Source: a virus (taxonomy: Duplodnaviria > Heunggongvirae > Uroviricota > Caudoviricetes). From it: a DNA stretch of 38,320 bases. The stretch spans positions 1 through 38,320 of IMG/VR virus record IMGVR_UViG_3300028797_000098, one strand, 5' to 3'. This document shows, piece after piece, positions 1 through 24,952 of this stretch. Made by a program: the position numbers and the translations under genes. Position 1 is the stretch's first letter. The number at the start of each line of letters is the position of its first letter. The notes beneath the pieces were generated by a model. The model worked only from the letters and a program-made list of their open reading frames with translations. It was not told the DNA's origin and ran no database searches.

Positions 1-1150
1 CAAGGCATAGCGGTCGCAAGACCACGGCTTCCCCGGTTCGCGGGGTACCTTCATTATCTAGTATTCTAAGACCTTCATCAAGTATGTTCTTGGCGGCATT
101 CCAGTCCCTATCTATTACGCTACCACATTCTAGACATATCCACTCGCGTTCGCTAAGTTTCAATGTATGGTATCTATGCCCACAGTTGTTGCATAGTTGC
201 GAACTGGGGAAGAACCGTCCTACCTTAACGACAGTACGGTTATGCCATTGAGCCTTGTACTCTATCATCTTAGTTAGTGTACCGAGTGCCTGATTGGCCA
301 ACGCACCAGCAAGACAGCGGTTCTTCAGCATTCCCTTTATGTTAAGGTTCTCCATGCAGATTATGTCATAATCTCGGACTAACCTGTGTGATACTTGATG
401 AAGGAAGTTATTCCTTCTGTTACCCAGTTTTTCATGGGCTGCAGCAAGTTGAATACGGACTTTCTCGTATCGACTGCCGCCTTTCTTCGCCTTTGCGAGT
501 TTCCTCTGCAAATGCCTAATCTTTCGTTCCGACTTCTTATCGAAATGTGGATTCTTAATCACTTCTCCGTTGGACATCACGATGGACGACTTGATACCGA
601 GGTCGATACCCACACATTCGCCAGTATGTTCCATTTCCGGCACATCAACATCACAACAAATAGAACAATAATAGTCGCCCTTTCTGCTCTTCTTTACGGT
701 GACATGATAGATTTTAACAATATTTTCGTGTTCAAATGTCTTGCCGAAACGGCACTTAATTGCACCAACTTTCGGCAGTACAATGGAATTGCCGACTATT
801 AGTTTCTTAATATCCTTGTGACACATAGCATTCCGGTAACTCTGTTTGTCCTTCTTGGACTTGTATCTTGGATACTTGGATTTGCCTGCAAAGAAGTTCT
901 GATAGGCTTGGTTCATATCCATATAGGCATTAGCCAGTCCTTGCGAGTCGGCTTCTTTCAACCATTCCCATTCTTCCTTAAAAGACTTCAATTTCGGCTG
1001 AAAGGACATCTTGGTCTCTTCGTAGATATATGACTTAATTCTAAGGCACTGGTTATACACGAAACGACAGCAACCGAAGGTCTTCGCGAAAAATACCTTC
1101 TGCGCTTTGTTCGGATATAGCTTGATTTCGATGCCTTTCTTAACTATCAT
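1..1150 (-). CDS. tnpB: TnpB RNA-guided endonuclease (IS200/IS605 family, solo/IS1341-like); 3' end runs off the window
   Basis: Manual translation of the minus strand from ATG at 1150 gives MIVKKGIEIKLYPNKAQKVFFAKTFGCCRFVYN (OrfB HTH). It also contains VGIDLGIK (RuvC-I), IICMENLNI (RuvC-II), SSQLCNNCG...EWICLECG (Zn finger) and DRDWNAAKNIL (RuvC-III). The frame is open to the window edge, so it is absent from the ORF track. Confidence 0.96.
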   Translation of the reverse strand, partial: MIVKKGIEIKLYPNKAQKVFFAKTFGCCRFVYNQCLRIKSYIYEETKMSFQPKLKSFKEEWEWLKEADSQGLANAYMDMNQAYQNFFAGKSKYPRYKSKKDKQSYRNAMCHKDIKKLIVGNSIVLPKVGAIKCRFGKTFEHENIVKIYHVTVKKSRKGDYYCSICCDVDVPEMEHTGECVGIDLGIKSSIVMSNGEVIKNPHFDKKSERKIRHLQRKLAKAKKGGSRYEKVRIQLAAAHEKLGNRRNNFLHQVSHRLVRDYDIICMENLNIKGMLKNRCLAGALANQALGTLTKMIEYKAQWHNRTVVKVGRFFPSSQLCNNCGHRYHTLKLSEREWICLECGSVIDRDWNAAKNILDEGLRILDNEGTPRTGEAVVLRPLCL

Positions 1151-1153
1151 ACG

Positions 1154-1246
1154 AAAAAACCTACCGGAACTGGTCCTTCCGGTAGGATACAATGTACCTA
1201 AGTACATTTTAAACTCTTCTGCGATGGCAAGGACCAGTTGCCTTCG
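1154..1246 (-). ncRNA. Putative structured leader RNA of tnpB: three hairpins, outer two with complementary loops
   Basis: Minus strand: CGAAGGCAA-ctggtcc-TTGCCATCG, AATGTAC-ttag-GTACATT, CCTACCGGAA-ggaccag-TTCCGGTAGG, then T6. Loops CTGGTCC and GGACCAG are exact reverse complements. Confidence 0.6.
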
Positions 1247-1252
1247 TATATC

Positions 1253-1289
1253 AGTTTATATATGTAGCAAAAATTCCGAAAATAGTCAA
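1253..1289 (-). promoter_or_regulatory. Sigma70-like promoter (TTGACT-17-TACATA) directly followed by a TATAAACT motif, upstream of tnpB
   Basis: Minus strand reads TTGACT attttcggaatttttgc TACATA TATAAACT. Confidence 0.6.
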
Positions 1290-1376
1290 GCGGCTTTCAT
1301 CTCACCCACTAAAGATGGGTGAGTTTTCTCGCCGCTACATTATAAACTGTACCATGAAAGATTTTTACCGACTGGT

Positions 1377-2045
1377 GTGTTTATTATGATGGATATGTTT
1401 GAATCGCTTGAAAGTATGCTTCCGCTGTGCGAAATGGCGTCAGTGGACATGACAGGCAATGCTGGGACATTGGATGCATCTCACTACAAGGCATATGCCA
1501 AGAATCCAAGTGAACTCGACCAGAATACGCTGGCTGAACTTGCTGACATGGTTGACCGCGCCCATGATGCAAAGAACGTGATTGCTGCGCAACAGGCATC
1601 CGGGCGTGAACCGATGGCGACACCAAGGACGATTGACCAGTTGATGAATAGCATACTTGTCCTCTACATCACATGTGACGATGCGCCCGTGGCTGTTACG
1701 AATGTAGTGGACCCGTCAATGGAAGACTATCATGGATATGTGCCCATCAGGTTCTATTCATTGAAAACCGGGTATAACCTGGATGGCCGTCTGCAACAGT
1801 CTTTCTTCTCCATTGAGGAAGATTTTCGCTCATCCGGCGTAGCAAAGGAATTGTTCCTGCAACTGAATGTCAACGGTTCGCCGTGCTTCATCGTGGTTGA
1901 CCCGATGGATGCACCGACAGTGAAGAATGTGCAGGAAAGCGGATACAAGAAAGTGGGCCACATGAAAATAGATGGCTCGGGTAACGAAATGGAGCTGTGG
2001 GTATCCCCAGCAAAGGAAAAGGTAGCTTCTGATGAGCAAGATTAA
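1377..2045 (+). CDS. GNAT-fold acetyltransferase-like protein with an N-terminal extension (start may be 1386/1395)
   Basis: FSIEEDFRSSGVAKELF resembles GNAT motif A, followed by ...ESGYKKVG. A TATAAACT motif lies at 1341-1348. Confidence 0.55.
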   Translation: MFIMMDMFESLESMLPLCEMASVDMTGNAGTLDASHYKAYAKNPSELDQNTLAELADMVDRAHDAKNVIAAQQASGREPMATPRTIDQLMNSILVLYITCDDAPVAVTNVVDPSMEDYHGYVPIRFYSLKTGYNLDGRLQQSFFSIEEDFRSSGVAKELFLQLNVNGSPCFIVVDPMDAPTVKNVQESGYKKVGHMKIDGSGNEMELWVSPAKEKVASDEQD

Positions 2046-15250: not shown

Positions 15251-15276
15251 CGGTCATGTTATAAACTCATTGCCGG

Positions 15277-15370
15277 CACATCGGATAATTGGCGTTCTTC
15301 GATGTGAGATGGGTTTTATAGGTGACCCGTGGTTGGATGAACGCCAATTTAGCCGACTGCGGGTCACTTT
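15277..15370 (+). ncRNA. Putative kissing-loop structured leader RNA before the endonuclease gene
   Basis: Stem 15277-15285/15298-15306; stems 15322-15330/15359-15367 and 15331-15335/15350-15354. Loop segments AATTGGCGTTC (15287-15297) and GAACGCCAATT (15339-15349) are exact complements. G-U pairs favour the + strand. Confidence 0.65.
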
Positions 15371-16483
15371 ATGCTTAATAAGAAATCAATTTATGGTCAT
15401 CTGTCTAATGAAGCTGACTTAGTGCAGATGAAATCTTTAAAACCGGTAAATAAATATAATCGGTTAAATTTTAGTTTTAAGTGTTCAGAATGTGGAGAGA
15501 TTTCATCACGAAACTTACGGACGATAGTATTTCCATTTAGATGTCGTAATTGCGTATCTAAACAAACACATACCACGGACGAATACTATGCAAACTATAA
15601 TAAGAGTATGGTTGAAAAGTATGGCGAAAATTACCGTGAGATATTAGATGAGCATCGGAATCAAGTTGTGAAGGAGCGTTATGGTAGTTATTCTGGCATG
15701 TTTATCGCAACAAGTGATAAACGAAATGCTACCATGAAAGCTAGATATGGGGTTACTCATCCGGCAAAAATTGATGGATATGGTAGAAAATGCGCTGAAA
15801 CTAAGTTGCAACGGTATGGTGACCCGACATATAACAATCGTACCAAAGCGAAGGAGAGTATTGTTGCCGAATTCGGATCAACTGATGTGTGGTATCAACA
15901 AAATGTAATTAAGAGTACGCGCACGAAATTGATACGATATGGTGATAAGACATATAATAATAGGGAGAAGGCTGCGAAAACATCTCTTAAACGATACGGA
16001 GTCCGCGTTCCATCACAGAGTAAGAAGATTCATGAACGAATGCATTTTAAGTACATTTATAATGATATAATCTTTGATAGTTCGTATGATTTATCATATT
16101 ATATATGGCTATCTGATAATAACATTGATTTTGAGTATAGACCGGATGTGCAATTTTCTTATACATATAATGGAAGGACTCATGTTTATAACCCGGATTT
16201 TAGAGTTGAAACGAGATTAGTTGAATTGAAGGGCCGGCAATTCTTCAAGGATAAAAATCCGGATAATGTAATGGTGAACCCATATAATCATGATGAGGAT
16301 GGATTATATGAAGCAAAACATCAGTGTATGCTGGCTCACGATGTTGACATTATAGTAGATTGTTCGGAATACGAGAAATATGTTGCCAAACATTATGGAA
16401 AGGATTATATTTCTACTTTTAGGAATAAAACAATTAAACATAAAAAGCGTAATAAGGTTTGTAATGAATTACAGCAAGATTGA
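15371..16483 (+). CDS. Free-standing homing-endonuclease-like protein: Zn finger, (K/R)YG repeats and a PD-(D/E)XK nuclease domain
   Basis: CSECG...CRNC; repeated KYG/RYG units (RYGDPTYNNR, RYGDKTYNNR); C-terminal FDSSYD...YNPDFRVETRLVELKG. AT-rich and wedged between nrdD and nrdG. Confidence 0.8.
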   Translation: MLNKKSIYGHLSNEADLVQMKSLKPVNKYNRLNFSFKCSECGEISSRNLRTIVFPFRCRNCVSKQTHTTDEYYANYNKSMVEKYGENYREILDEHRNQVVKERYGSYSGMFIATSDKRNATMKARYGVTHPAKIDGYGRKCAETKLQRYGDPTYNNRTKAKESIVAEFGSTDVWYQQNVIKSTRTKLIRYGDKTYNNREKAAKTSLKRYGVRVPSQSKKIHERMHFKYIYNDIIFDSSYDLSYYIWLSDNNIDFEYRPDVQFSYTYNGRTHVYNPDFRVETRLVELKGRQFFKDKNPDNVMVNPYNHDEDGLYEAKHQCMLAHDVDIIVDCSEYEKYVAKHYGKDYISTFRNKTIKHKKRNKVCNELQQD

Positions 16484-18849: not shown

Positions 18850-18878
18850 GTTGCCATTTTAGGTATTTTTGCTATATT
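18850..18878 (+). promoter_or_regulatory. GTTGCCA/TGCTATATT promoter (16-nt spacer), ATG 6 nt downstream
   Basis: GTTGCCA ttttaggtattttt GC TATATT tctcgc ATG. Confidence 0.65.
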
Positions 18879-22652: not shown

Positions 22653-23401
22653 TTATTGAAGCTACAAACCGTTTTGTCTTTACAGAAGTTGCCCGCATGC
22701 TGAAGGAAGAGTGCGGTGGCCGGCCTGAATTTGCCGACACTGTATTCATCCTCGGTCATGTAGATTCTCGTTGTACCCTGTCAGGTATGCGCAAGAAGTA
22801 TCCTAACAAGAAACTCGTTGTATACCAGTTGGAACAGATGTATGACGGATGCAAGTATGCCAATCCGCATGTATTCGAATGGCTTCGTGGTGCAGACGAG
22901 GTATGGGACTATGACTTGGACAATATCGACTGGCTTGCCAAGAAGGGCATCCGTACTTCATTCCATCCGATGCATTACGCAAGCACTTTGCGCGACGTAC
23001 CAAGCGTGGAAAAGGATGTCGATGTCCTGTTCTATGGCTTTCTGACCGAGCGTAGGTCCAAGCTGCTTACTCAGCTTGCCAATGCCGGCTGCAACAAGTG
23101 GGCAACGACAATCACCATGGGCATTTCCGGCGAGAACCTGGCCAAATGGATCGGACGCTCCAAGATTATCCTGAACATCCACGCATACGATAACAACAAC
23201 CGTCAGGAACAGGTGCGCATGTTCTACCCGGTAATCAACGGGGCATGTGTCGTTTCCGAGCAGAGTGCCCGTAACTACCTTGACGGCTGTATTACCGAAT
23301 GTCCGTTGAAGTACCTCCCGGAAACCATAGACAACATCCTCAAGAATGACATGTGGAAGAAGCTCGGTGATAACGCTGTCTATAACTTCATGAGGCGATA
23401 A
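22649..23401 (+). CDS. GT-B-type glycosyltransferase-like protein (CgeB/GT1_2-like C-terminal domain)
   Basis: DVDVLFYG...ERRSKLL...RSKIILNIH...EQVRMFYPVINGACVVSE. Confidence 0.75.
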   Translation: MIIEATNRFVFTEVARMLKEECGGRPEFADTVFILGHVDSRCTLSGMRKKYPNKKLVVYQLEQMYDGCKYANPHVFEWLRGADEVWDYDLDNIDWLAKKGIRTSFHPMHYASTLRDVPSVEKDVDVLFYGFLTERRSKLLTQLANAGCNKWATTITMGISGENLAKWIGRSKIILNIHAYDNNNRQEQVRMFYPVINGACVVSEQSARNYLDGCITECPLKYLPETIDNILKNDMWKKLGDNAVYNFMRR

Positions 23402-23692
23402 TCAACTACCCACGGGTATAAAGACCCGTGAGTTTGGGGTAACTCAGACTCATAGTTGATTAGACTCAGTGAAGCAGAGAAATCTGCTGAACTACGTTAG
23501 GAAGGTCATAACACCTACGGATGTACGGTCAAGTCTGTAGCTCTGTTGAATGTCATTAAACAGTCCTGATGGGTAGGGACAGTGTGGCGTTCATGACAAG
23601 CCTTCCTAACATTGTCGATGACCACCCACAGGGAGTAATCCCTGCATTACCTATTAAGTTAGGTTAAAAAACAACGAAAGGATAACGACTAG
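23381..23692 (+). ncRNA. IscB omegaRNA (HEARO-type scaffold from 23401; guide from the 5' flank)
   Basis: ATCAACTA (23401-23408) pairs with TAGTTGAT (23453-23460); hairpin CACGGGT-ataaag-ACCCGTG; conserved-looking AGACTCAG, CTACGTT, ACACCTACGGATG, GTAGCTCTG and AACATTGTCGA blocks. Confidence 0.9.
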
Positions 23693-24951
23693 ATGGTCTA
23701 TGTACTGAACAAATACGGCAACCCTCTGATGCCTACCACTAGGCACGGCAAGGTCCGTCGTCTGCTCAGGAAAGGTCTCGCGGTTGTTGTCGATTACCGT
23801 CCATTCACCATTCAGCTTGCTTACGACACGCCGAACGGCGTGCAGGAGGTCAGTCTAGGAGTAGACGCGGGTACGAAGCATGTAGGTTTCTCCGCCACTA
23901 CCAAGAAGAAGGTACTTTTCGAAGCAGAATTACTGCTGAGGTCGGATATCGTGGAGAAGCTATCCACGCGAAGGGAGTTCCGTCGGACCAGAAGGAACAG
24001 GAAAACTCGCTACCGCAAGTCCAGGTTCCTGAACAGGACCAAGAAGCCAGGGTGGATTGCGCCTTCCGTACGGCAGAAGGTGGATTCCCATATATACTGG
24101 ATTTCGAAGATATGTAAGATTTTACCTATCGGGGAGATAACGGTGGAGACGGCACAGTTTGATATTCAACTGTTGAAGGCCCAGGAACAGTGCCTTCCGT
24201 TGCCGCATGGAACCGACTACCAGAAGGGTGAACAGCTCGGATTTTCTAACGTAAGGGAATACGTGTTGTTCCGGGATGGGCATAAATGCCAGTGCTGTAA
24301 GGGCAAGTCCAAGGACAGGAAGCTGCGGGTCCACCATATCGAAAGCAGAAAGACAGGTGGAGATGCACCTAACAACCTCATCACGTTGTGTTCGGAATGC
24401 CATGCTAAGTATCATAGGGGCGAAATTAAGCTGCCTAAGAATGTCAGCCGCGGGGCTTCCTTGAAGGATGCTGCCGTAATGGGCATCATGCGGAAGTCGG
24501 TGTTCGGTCAACTGGATAAACTGTTCGGTGATGCAGTTCCTTGCCACGAGACGTACGGCTACATCACCAAGTATGCCCGCACCAAGGCAGGCCTTCCGAA
24601 GGACCATACCATAGACGCCCGTTGCATCAGTGGCAATACGGGTGCCGAGTCCGACGGGCATTACTGGATTATCCGCAAGTTGCGTGCCAACAACAGGCAG
24701 CTGCACAAGGCATCCATACTCAAGGGATGCATTCGGAAGAACAACCAGGCACCTCGGGAGGTACATGGATATAGACTGATGGATTATGTTGTTTATGCCG
24801 AACGACCTTGCTTCGTGAATGGCCGCAGGCAGTCGGGATACTTCTCTCTATCGGATATTTCCGGACATGTCCTTGCCGGTTCGGTGAACTATAAGCACCT
24901 TAACTTAATTAACCACAACAACACTAATATAATGGAAACGAGAGAACTATA
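23401..24951 (+). mobile_element. IscB/omegaRNA element (IS200/IS605 superfamily, no tnpA)
   Basis: Left boundary at the ATCAAC scaffold start. Removing 23401-24951 restores a TAATG stop/start overlap between the flanking genes. Confidence 0.8.
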
Positions 24952-24952
24952 A
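23693..24952 (+). CDS. iscB: IscB RNA-guided endonuclease
   Basis: PLMP N-terminus, LGVDAG (RuvC-I), Arg-rich bridge helix RREFRRTRRNRKTRYR, ITVETAQFD (RuvC-II), CQCC...VHHIESRKTGG...NLITLCSECH (HNH) and DHTIDARCI (RuvC-III). Confidence 0.97.
   Translation: MVYVLNKYGNPLMPTTRHGKVRRLLRKGLAVVVDYRPFTIQLAYDTPNGVQEVSLGVDAGTKHVGFSATTKKKVLFEAELLLRSDIVEKLSTRREFRRTRRNRKTRYRKSRFLNRTKKPGWIAPSVRQKVDSHIYWISKICKILPIGEITVETAQFDIQLLKAQEQCLPLPHGTDYQKGEQLGFSNVREYVLFRDGHKCQCCKGKSKDRKLRVHHIESRKTGGDAPNNLITLCSECHAKYHRGEIKLPKNVSRGASLKDAAVMGIMRKSVFGQLDKLFGDAVPCHETYGYITKYARTKAGLPKDHTIDARCISGNTGAESDGHYWIIRKLRANNRQLHKASILKGCIRKNNQAPREVHGYRLMDYVVYAERPCFVNGRRQSGYFSLSDISGHVLAGSVNYKHLNLINHNNTNIMETREL

Follow-up and report, generated by a model that had tools for sequence, protein, structure and literature searches.

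A Candidate Class of Kissing-Hairpin Leader RNAs Before tnpB and Other Mobile Nuclease Genes of Gut Phages

Introduction

Positions 1154 to 1260 on the minus strand of the window (the whole stretch of 38,320 nucleotides analysed here, corresponding to the initial 38 kb of a viral contig of 203 kb) appear to encode the 5′ leader RNA of a tnpB gene. This leader would belong to an uncatalogued class of kissing hairpins, which occurs in rumen and gut phages that have Bacteroidota-type promoters and which is found there with the mobile nuclease genes of these phages. With a probability of roughly 0.5, we read it as a leaky terminator close to the promoter combined with a gate on the start site, this gate being clamped by the contact between two hairpin loops.

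Cas12 descends from TnpB, which is also a compact nuclease for genome editing. To our knowledge, the control of its own expression inside transposons is essentially undescribed. The leader presented here has strong support from covariation, accompanies tnpB in clades whose protein identity ranges from 30% to 96%, and also fronts other mobile phage nuclease genes. Its conserved features are purely geometric, namely, two loop-paired hairpins of which the last abuts the start codon.

The tnpB Element and Its Setting

The 203-kb contig carries genes for a large terminase, NrdD, a Dda-like helicase, and HNH/IscB, and the DNA runs containing the stretch are of cattle, goat, and sheep gut origin. The tnpB gene at its left edge (Table 1) matches three Pfam domains, including OrfB_IS605 and the zinc ribbon (TNB), with E-values from 1e-16 to 1e-22, and RuvC motifs are legible in the translation. 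TnpB relatives are 423 aa long; in the window, the 3′ end of the gene, the omega-RNA, and the right end of the element have been lost at the end of the contig. Two tnpB paralogs are present in the same genome (G000:C1:66910-67965 (+), 30% identical, and 156193-156798 (-), 28%).

The left boundary of the element is sharp. In eight viral relatives with TnpB proteins that are 73-96% identical, the alignment begins at 1346 and continues inward, and it is exactly at 1346 that the DNA contigs of a source-like sample part ways. TTTAT opens the conservation in 13 different flanks, among which there is no empty site to tell target from element. Immediately inside lies the left-end subterminal hairpin, where the outer stem around positions 1323-1301 covaries and where the loop, TCTTTAG, is the same as that of the right-end hairpin of the relatives; in the latter, the conservation 3′ of tnpB stops with this right-end hairpin, followed by GGTAGTTCAT. 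Hairpins of the left-end type also form the left or the right end of other TnpB elements and of one mini-element. The left and right subterminal hairpins are therefore alike (the right end being taken from relatives) and terminal inverted repeats are absent, as in the IS200/IS605 family. These end hairpins with their common loop, together with tnpB, identify the element, as judged from its sequence, as a tnpA-less IS200/605-type element.

The leader is held in the 196-nt spacer between the left end and tnpB. It had originally been predicted to lie where tnpA normally does, which is correct insofar as it occupies the left-end-to-tnpB interval of an element without tnpA. It is not, however, a substitute for tnpA: three relatives (L112, L227, and L231) retain tnpA and have the leader between the divergent tnpA and tnpB genes, so it is an element of the tnpB 5′ UTR rather than a replacement for tnpA.

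Table 1. Positions of the leader, the element, and the second leader in the window.
Feature	Positions	Strand	Description
tnpB	2..1150	(-)	383 codons present; Pfam HTH_OrfB_IS605, OrfB_IS605, Cas12f1-like_TNB
U-rich tail and CGT spacer	1151..1159	(-)	T6 at 1159-1154, CGT, then the tnpB ATG (1150)
Hairpin C	1160..1186	(-)	perfect 10-bp stem, 7-nt loop GGACCAG (1176-1170); terminator-like, -16.3 kcal/mol
Hairpin B	1191..1208	(-)	7-bp stem, 4-nt loop; spacer role
Hairpin A	1222..1246	(-)	3+5-bp stem, CGA/TCG and GGCAA/TTGCC; 7-nt loop CTGGTCC (1237-1231)
TATAAACT box	1253..1260	(-)	5′ boundary of the module; probably a promoter -10-like element
Phage-type promoter	1261..1289	(-)	TTGACT, 12 nt, then TTTGCTACATA; TTGAC invariant in relatives
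Left-end subterminal hairpin	1290..1335	(-)	inner CTCACCCA / TCTTTAG / TGGGTGAG at 1323-1301; outer GCGGC/GCCGC
TTTAT	1342..1346	(-)	edge of conservation; candidate target/TAM-like pentanucleotide beside the left end
Second leader	15260..15370	(+)	TATAAACT; hairpin 1 with AATTGGCGTTC (15287-15297); hairpin 2 with GAACGCCAATT (15339-15349); TTT

Structures resembling the ends of the element were also seen elsewhere. A solitary hairpin of the left-end type (CACCCAT.TTTAGTGGGTG) is present at G000:C1:198924-198946 (L002 1505-1523) and in L040, L086, and L092; it is flanked by GGAAACT and AGAGGA, its outer stem covaries between loci, and it lies some 14-20 nt upstream of a divergent gene with no tnpB nearby. 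A related 215-kb phage contig contains, at L093 5684-5900, a geneless mini-element of about 200 nt, which has a hairpin of the left-end type and whose right-end hairpin finishes in GGTAGTTCAT. Finally, the window includes a HEARO RNA (the IscB omega-RNA) at 23401-23629 (+), which reaches 137 bits, the gathering score being 83, and which is directly upstream of an HNH/IscB-like ORF at 23693-24952 (+); it was the sole match in a gathering-threshold Rfam scan of the whole window.

Fold of the Leader

The original prediction comprised three hairpins, a run of six Ts, and a loop complementarity of 7 nt extending to 11 nt, and all of these were found exactly where it had placed them. The minimum-free-energy fold consists of precisely hairpins A, B, and C (z = -4.2), and none of 200 shuffles folds as well. 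When the upstream region was shuffled 2000 times with its dinucleotides preserved, the 11-nt complementarity, AACTGGTCCTT/AAGGACCAGTT, was never matched. The terminator-like character attributed to hairpin C was confirmed: the hairpin is picked up by a terminator scan, and it has the form of an intrinsic terminator, with a 10-bp stem that includes six G-C pairs and that is followed by T6, so that release of the transcript is predicted. In addition, AAACT (1257-1253) could pair with AGTTT (1215-1211).

Pairing and Covariation of the Loops

Twenty-one distinct leaders were assembled from a pattern search, which fixed only stem C, and from loci found by protein similarity. In all 21, loops A and C are exact reverse complements of each other, without mismatch or wobble. 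Six loop-C haplotypes occur among them (GGACCAG, GTACCAG, GTGCGAG, GGGCTAG, GGTCCAG, and GTTCCAG), and seven once more distant relatives are added. The seven pairs of the loop-loop helix are 100% Watson-Crick with no G-U in the 21 distinct sequences, and three of the seven are compensatory, with double changes in 6, 10, and 10 sequences. The loop complementarity is thus kept in related left-end-to-tnpB spacers, which was the conservation on which the original prediction depended.

The remainder of the structure behaves in the same way. In hairpin B, four of the seven pairs have changed on both sides, and 98.6% of the cells are paired. Over the entire structure, the paired cells amount to 97% versus 25-39% in shifted registers; its covariation score was equalled by none of 500 shuffles, and the G-U pairs in helices A and B fit the tnpB-sense strand only. 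The invariance of stem C is a product of the search design; yet the protein-based loci L006-L013 and L101 keep this stem unchanged, and it is compensatory in more distant relatives, with two wobble pairs in L103 and six changed pairs in L104 and L121. The contact between loop A and loop C is strongly supported as real by these patterns, and a physical helix is what they predict.

The loops evolve faster than the remainder of the leader. Placed on the tree of TnpB, the seven haplotypes of the loops imply no fewer than six switches, the most parsimonious number being nine. The TnpB of the window and that of L006 are 96% identical, yet three of the seven loop pairs differ between their leaders; in independent lineages, the loop sequences are unrelated yet complementary. 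Such fast, coordinated change suggests selection on the identity of the loops, which would fit either orthogonality among co-resident leaders or an action in trans of the terminated leader RNA.

Distribution among TnpB Relatives

Among relatives fetched by protein similarity, the architecture is kept down to about 47-53% TnpB identity, with stems that are entirely different. It combines four features found in the window and in these relatives: a promoter box, a 5′ hairpin, a terminator-like last hairpin that has a U-rich tail and adjoins the ATG, and loops that are complementary and covary. The distant relatives that have it are L101, L103, L104, L105, L106, L112, L113, L118, L121, L122, and L227-L233; in every one of these, the partner sequence sits in the loop of the first hairpin, and the per-sequence shuffle p for the loop complementarity is from 0 to 0.02.

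Two subtypes can be distinguished. The short-loop type has 7-nt loops, as in L121 (CCGATCC/GGATCGG), L103 (ATAGCCC/GGGCTAT), and L104, where the CTGGTCC/GGACCAG loop sequences are swapped between the hairpins. The long-loop type (L105, L106, L112, L113, L118, L122, and L227-L233) has loops of 12-24 nt, of which 9-13 bases are complementary. In all of the leaders compared, the last hairpin ends 0-10 nt 5′ of the ATG with a U-rich tail. This tail is rich in U or pyrimidines in both subtypes: it is U5-6 in all of the short-loop relatives (A plus U5 being among them) and short or interrupted in the long-loop ones (such as TTT at 15368-15370 and TCTGTAT in L118). The 2-bp extension of the loop pairing into the stem, which gives the 11 bp seen in the window, is not conserved; in L104 and L121, the complementarity is exactly 7 nt.

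The leader is absent from L100 (58% identity) and from the TnpB group with 38-40% identity, and the complementarity in L116 is unconvincing (shuffle p = 0.27). A covariance model of the short-loop type (R1) brought up no additional copy, either in the 203-kb genome or in distant TnpB loci, and it misses the long-loop type since it is too sequence-specific. A search of a prokaryote genome collection with the stem-C pattern gave nine matches, all of them due to chance, with neither the loop complement nor a tnpB in any of them.

No unpaired nucleotide is conserved across the subtypes, which makes it unlikely, on this comparison, that the leader is a ligand-binding or catalytic RNA such as a riboswitch or a ribozyme.

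Several other candidate functions were considered and rejected. The leader might have been coding sequence, in the form of a 402-aa ORF starting from the in-frame ATG at 1207; this ATG is not conserved. Sequestration of the start codon by a 5′ segment (ATACGAA against TTCGTAT) is seen in just one subgroup (the window, L006, and L010); L008 has lost it, and it is absent elsewhere. A link between the loops and the omega-RNA region, via the shared CAACTGGT, was discarded because the latter shows no covariation with the loops, and a hammerhead-like or other ribozyme core because the junction nucleotides vary.

Further Leaders and Other Cargo

The second leader in the window precedes the ATG of an ORF at 15371-16483 (DUF7487), and its shuffle p is 0.001. 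In L225, a homologous DUF7487 ORF stands behind the same loops with different stems, and in L118, nearly the same loop is placed before a tnpB. A genome-wide scan located a third leader at genome position 66779-66909, before the tnpB paralog that is 30% identical. The three leaders of this genome carry three different loop pairs, each behind a TATAAACT box and each before a selfish nuclease-type gene.

Loop sequences can recur where stems do not. The loop pair TTGGCGTTC is found over very different stems in the 15260 leader of the window, L118, L225, L110, and L227, and the CTGGTCC loop is common to the window and L104 despite their different stems. When the loop-pair pattern TTGGCGTTC...GAACGCCAA was sought in viral contigs, the matches were mostly due to chance, and only those in L096 and L225 are real.

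A short-loop leader also precedes a different TnpB-like protein (L073) and a 56-aa ORF without an IS end (L053). Its presence before this last ORF, and between tnpA and tnpB in other elements, marks it as an RNA module rather than a DNA structure of transposon ends. On the evidence of these loci, the module does not depend on transposon ends and occurs preferentially with mobile or accessory genes.

The L053 locus has some features of its own. The short-loop kissing leader, at 1644-1814 (-), comes with its own TTGACA-17-TATATT promoter, while the 56-aa ORF has a GGAG ribosome-binding site and ends in a C-terminus that is hydrophobic; a long (20-nt) spacer was seen in no other case.

Promoter Context

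Two sequences directly upstream of the leader might direct its transcription. The motif TTTGCTAYAT has 31 sites in the genome, including the one at 1289-1261. TTG[CA]C lies about 12 nt upstream in 21 of the 31, and an ATG lies 3-9 nt downstream in 17, which implies that many mRNAs are leaderless; Shine-Dalgarno sequences are rare in this phage genome. The motif resembles what we take to be the consensus of Bacteroidota promoters (TTTG / TAnnTTTG), and this likeness suggests, by analogy, a host from the phylum Bacteroidota. Examples within the window are at 18868, 10542, and 26290 (+).

The other sequence, the TATAAACT box, has 18 copies in the genome where 7.5 would be expected, and most of these copies precede an ATG by 10-35 nt. 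It lies 5-10 nt before hairpin 1 in no fewer than eight leaders; leaders with the box in this position include those at 15260 in the window and at 66779 in the genome, and those of L112, L096, L225, L101, and L103. Under either promoter reading, the 5′ end of the RNA is predicted to fall at around 1254-1246, and a terminated leader would measure 93-101 nt. With promoter boxes directly upstream, a discrete RNA of about 95-100 nt is possible. The contigs of three metatranscriptome runs have no bearing on expression, since none of them spans 1157-1295.

Copies of the box occur in other contexts too. Those in the window are at 1341(+), 4943(+), 8550(-), 10480(-), 15260(+), 18843(-), and 30262(+). 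At genome positions 91916, 93954, and 98289, the AAACT of the box supplies the 5′ arm of a single hairpin, after which come a U-run and an ATG. At 1341-1356 (+) in the window, the element abuts TTTAT, and in 6 of the 13 distinct flanks, the preceding bases are AG; a target of AG plus TTTAT reads as the reverse complement of the TATAAACT box. In the present case, the element is directly upstream of a neighbouring plus-strand gene. The insertion sequence may therefore prefer the phage's own promoter boxes as targets, which would link insertion sequences to the promoter grammar of the phage.

A Proposed Gate before tnpB and Its Rivals

We propose the following sequence of events. Transcription would start a few nucleotides before hairpin A, from the TTGACT...TTTGCTACATA promoter and/or from the TATAAACT box. 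Hairpins A, B, and C would then fold in the RNA, with the 7-nt loops at the tips of A and C joining by Watson-Crick pairs. The contact between the loops would form first and the terminator stem would then close beneath it, so that the contact is probably the clamp, or nucleator, of the closed state. Hairpin C and its U-run, which lie 3-9 nt before an ATG that has no Shine-Dalgarno sequence, would together form a constitutive gate, made up of a leaky intrinsic terminator and a roadblock at the start site. Most transcripts, whether from the element's own promoter or from read-through of phage genes, would then stop, or remain untranslated, before tnpB. The output of the nuclease, we infer, would be low or conditional, and the element would be insulated from read-through. 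The loop contact would not melt the terminator; it would give each leader a private sequence "address".

There are arguments against such a gate. The U-tails of the long-loop leaders are short or interrupted, so termination may not be a function shared by the whole class. Where an ATG has no Shine-Dalgarno sequence, the U-rich and unstructured tail in front of it might just as well favour initiation, in a host that does not rely on Shine-Dalgarno sequences. A clamp that is purely intramolecular leaves the faster change of the loops unaccounted for, and L100, at 58% identity, manages without the leader.

The original prediction offered, among other roles, an opposite one: loop A could act as an anti-terminator, invading the terminator stem by way of the 11-bp duplex, which would raise tnpB output. 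The 11-nt complementarity is indeed present in the window and in most of the short-loop relatives, and the nascent transcript, when it has been made as far as loop C, pairs loop A with the emerging loop C region in this duplex (-25.1 kcal/mol). However, L104 and L121 have no complementarity outside the 7-nt loops. Moreover, when the 11-bp duplex has formed, the lower 8 bp of hairpin C still form beside it (-12.8 kcal/mol), and the forced nested alternative (-32.4 kcal/mol) is less stable than the three-hairpin fold (-36.7 kcal/mol), in a comparison that does not yet count the kissing energy (-11.3 kcal/mol for the 7-bp loop duplex); no conserved trigger able to shift this balance was found. 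Anti-termination by stem invasion is thus highly improbable. Since the loops are predicted to touch in the nascent RNA and the three-hairpin fold is favoured, a clamp or nucleator is the more probable description of their contact.

What the gate leaves unaccounted for, the speed of loop change, is the starting point of the main rival explanation, in which the unit from promoter to terminator produces a discrete, stable RNA of about 95 nt, the loops of which act in trans on matching nascent leaders. This would amount to an element-specific control of copy number or to something akin to immunity, with the loop "addresses" defining compatibility groups. It is consistent with the promoter directly upstream, with the strong terminator of the short-loop subtype, with loops that are hypervariable yet always complementary through repeated switches of haplotype, and with the three different loop pairs in one genome. 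Even so, it is unlikely, given that the long-loop members have no convincing terminator tail, so that a discrete RNA would not be family-wide; that the recurrence of loop pairs across very different stems would not be expected under constant diversification; and that there is no Rfam C4 match. The broader version, in which the addresses govern both TnpB transposons and other phage-borne selfish nucleases and in which coordinated loop switching is an escape from cross-control, is doubtful to a similar degree.

The leader might instead be a positive or neutral insulator. The 5′ hairpin would shield the mRNA from 5′-end-dependent RNases, and, thanks to the compact kissing fold, the U-rich start region would stay single-stranded irrespective of the sequence upstream of the insertion site; in a variant of this idea, the coaxial helix formed by A, the kiss, and C would be an RNase III-type processing site that releases an mRNA with a short leader. 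This would make sense of a hairpin 1 that begins, in eight examples, 5-10 nt after the TATAAACT box, that is, at the predicted 5′ end; of the many leaderless mRNAs and rare Shine-Dalgarno sequences of the phage; of tails that are rich in U or pyrimidines in both subtypes; and of a module that travels with mobile genes that land in arbitrary contexts. Nevertheless, a hairpin of very high stability, placed 0-10 nt before the ATG, should impede 30S binding, and the short-loop tail is that of a textbook terminator, which renders insulation distinctly improbable as the function of the leader.

A role at the level of DNA must also be considered. Transposition of IS200/605 elements proceeds through single strands and makes use of subterminal hairpins, and the leader adjoins the left end in the copies without tnpA; its hairpins might therefore serve TnpA transposition in the single-stranded transposon or, alternatively, the 11-bp repeat might be the operator of a protein, with the inverted repeat kept symmetric by template switching. 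But the true left-end and right-end hairpins have been identified elsewhere, the motif is found without IS ends (in L053, L225, and the 15260 locus of the window) as well as between tnpA and tnpB, and the complementary blocks lie precisely in the hairpin loops of otherwise unrelated stems. We consider either form of this explanation extremely unlikely.

Relation to Known Systems

Neither the leader of the window nor 17 related loci gave a match to the covariance models of Rfam 15, even at permissive E-values. The IS605-orfB-I and IS605-orfB-II motifs (RF03065 and its sibling) are, like the leader, structured, non-coding, and tied to IS605 orfB (tnpB) genes; their covariance models gave no match at E-values up to 1-5. 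A full-text search of the literature found no description of a kissing-loop leader of tnpB or of a structured RNA upstream of it.

The closest likeness within the same transposon superfamily is to the tnpA leader of Salmonella IS200, which Beuzon's group is said to have described in 1999 as a terminator hairpin at the left end and a stem-loop that hides the ribosome-binding site. There, as proposed here, hairpins in the RNA, located between the left end and the first gene, hold expression down and stop external transcription from reading through. The IS200 leader, however, controls tnpA, is without loop-loop pairing, and has no sequence similarity to the tnpB leader, in which, moreover, a promoter lies upstream of the terminator-like hairpin. 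In phage lambda, the PR′ - 6S RNA - tR′ region similarly has a constitutive promoter with a terminator within about 100-200 nt, such that the downstream genes need read-through; it differs in having no kissing loops and in depending on the Q protein and the qut site.

The pairing itself has parallels in regulatory RNAs. The c4 RNAs of P1 and P7 and the CI RNA of P4 also have complementary blocks within one leader, the variants of which set specificity types (P1 versus P7); these RNAs are processed and act in trans, causing termination or preventing the translation of downstream genes, a mode of action that is hypothetical for the tnpB leader. In the plasmid antisense RNAs (pT181, pIP501, ColE1 RNA I/II, and R1 CopA/CopT), specificity is likewise set by Watson-Crick kissing loops of seven nucleotides, and kissing is coupled to the formation of a terminator, but the partners are two transcripts from opposite strands, whereas the tnpB leader has both loops on one RNA. 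What is added here is that the leader rides inside IS200/605 TnpB elements, spans TnpB clades, and has two more copies in the same genome, and that its loop switches can be counted and an argument made from its energetics and conservation against anti-termination. The leader is a clean, mutable system for the gating of termination or translation by loop-loop contact, and its interchangeable loops make it possible to test whether they can serve as orthogonal control channels.
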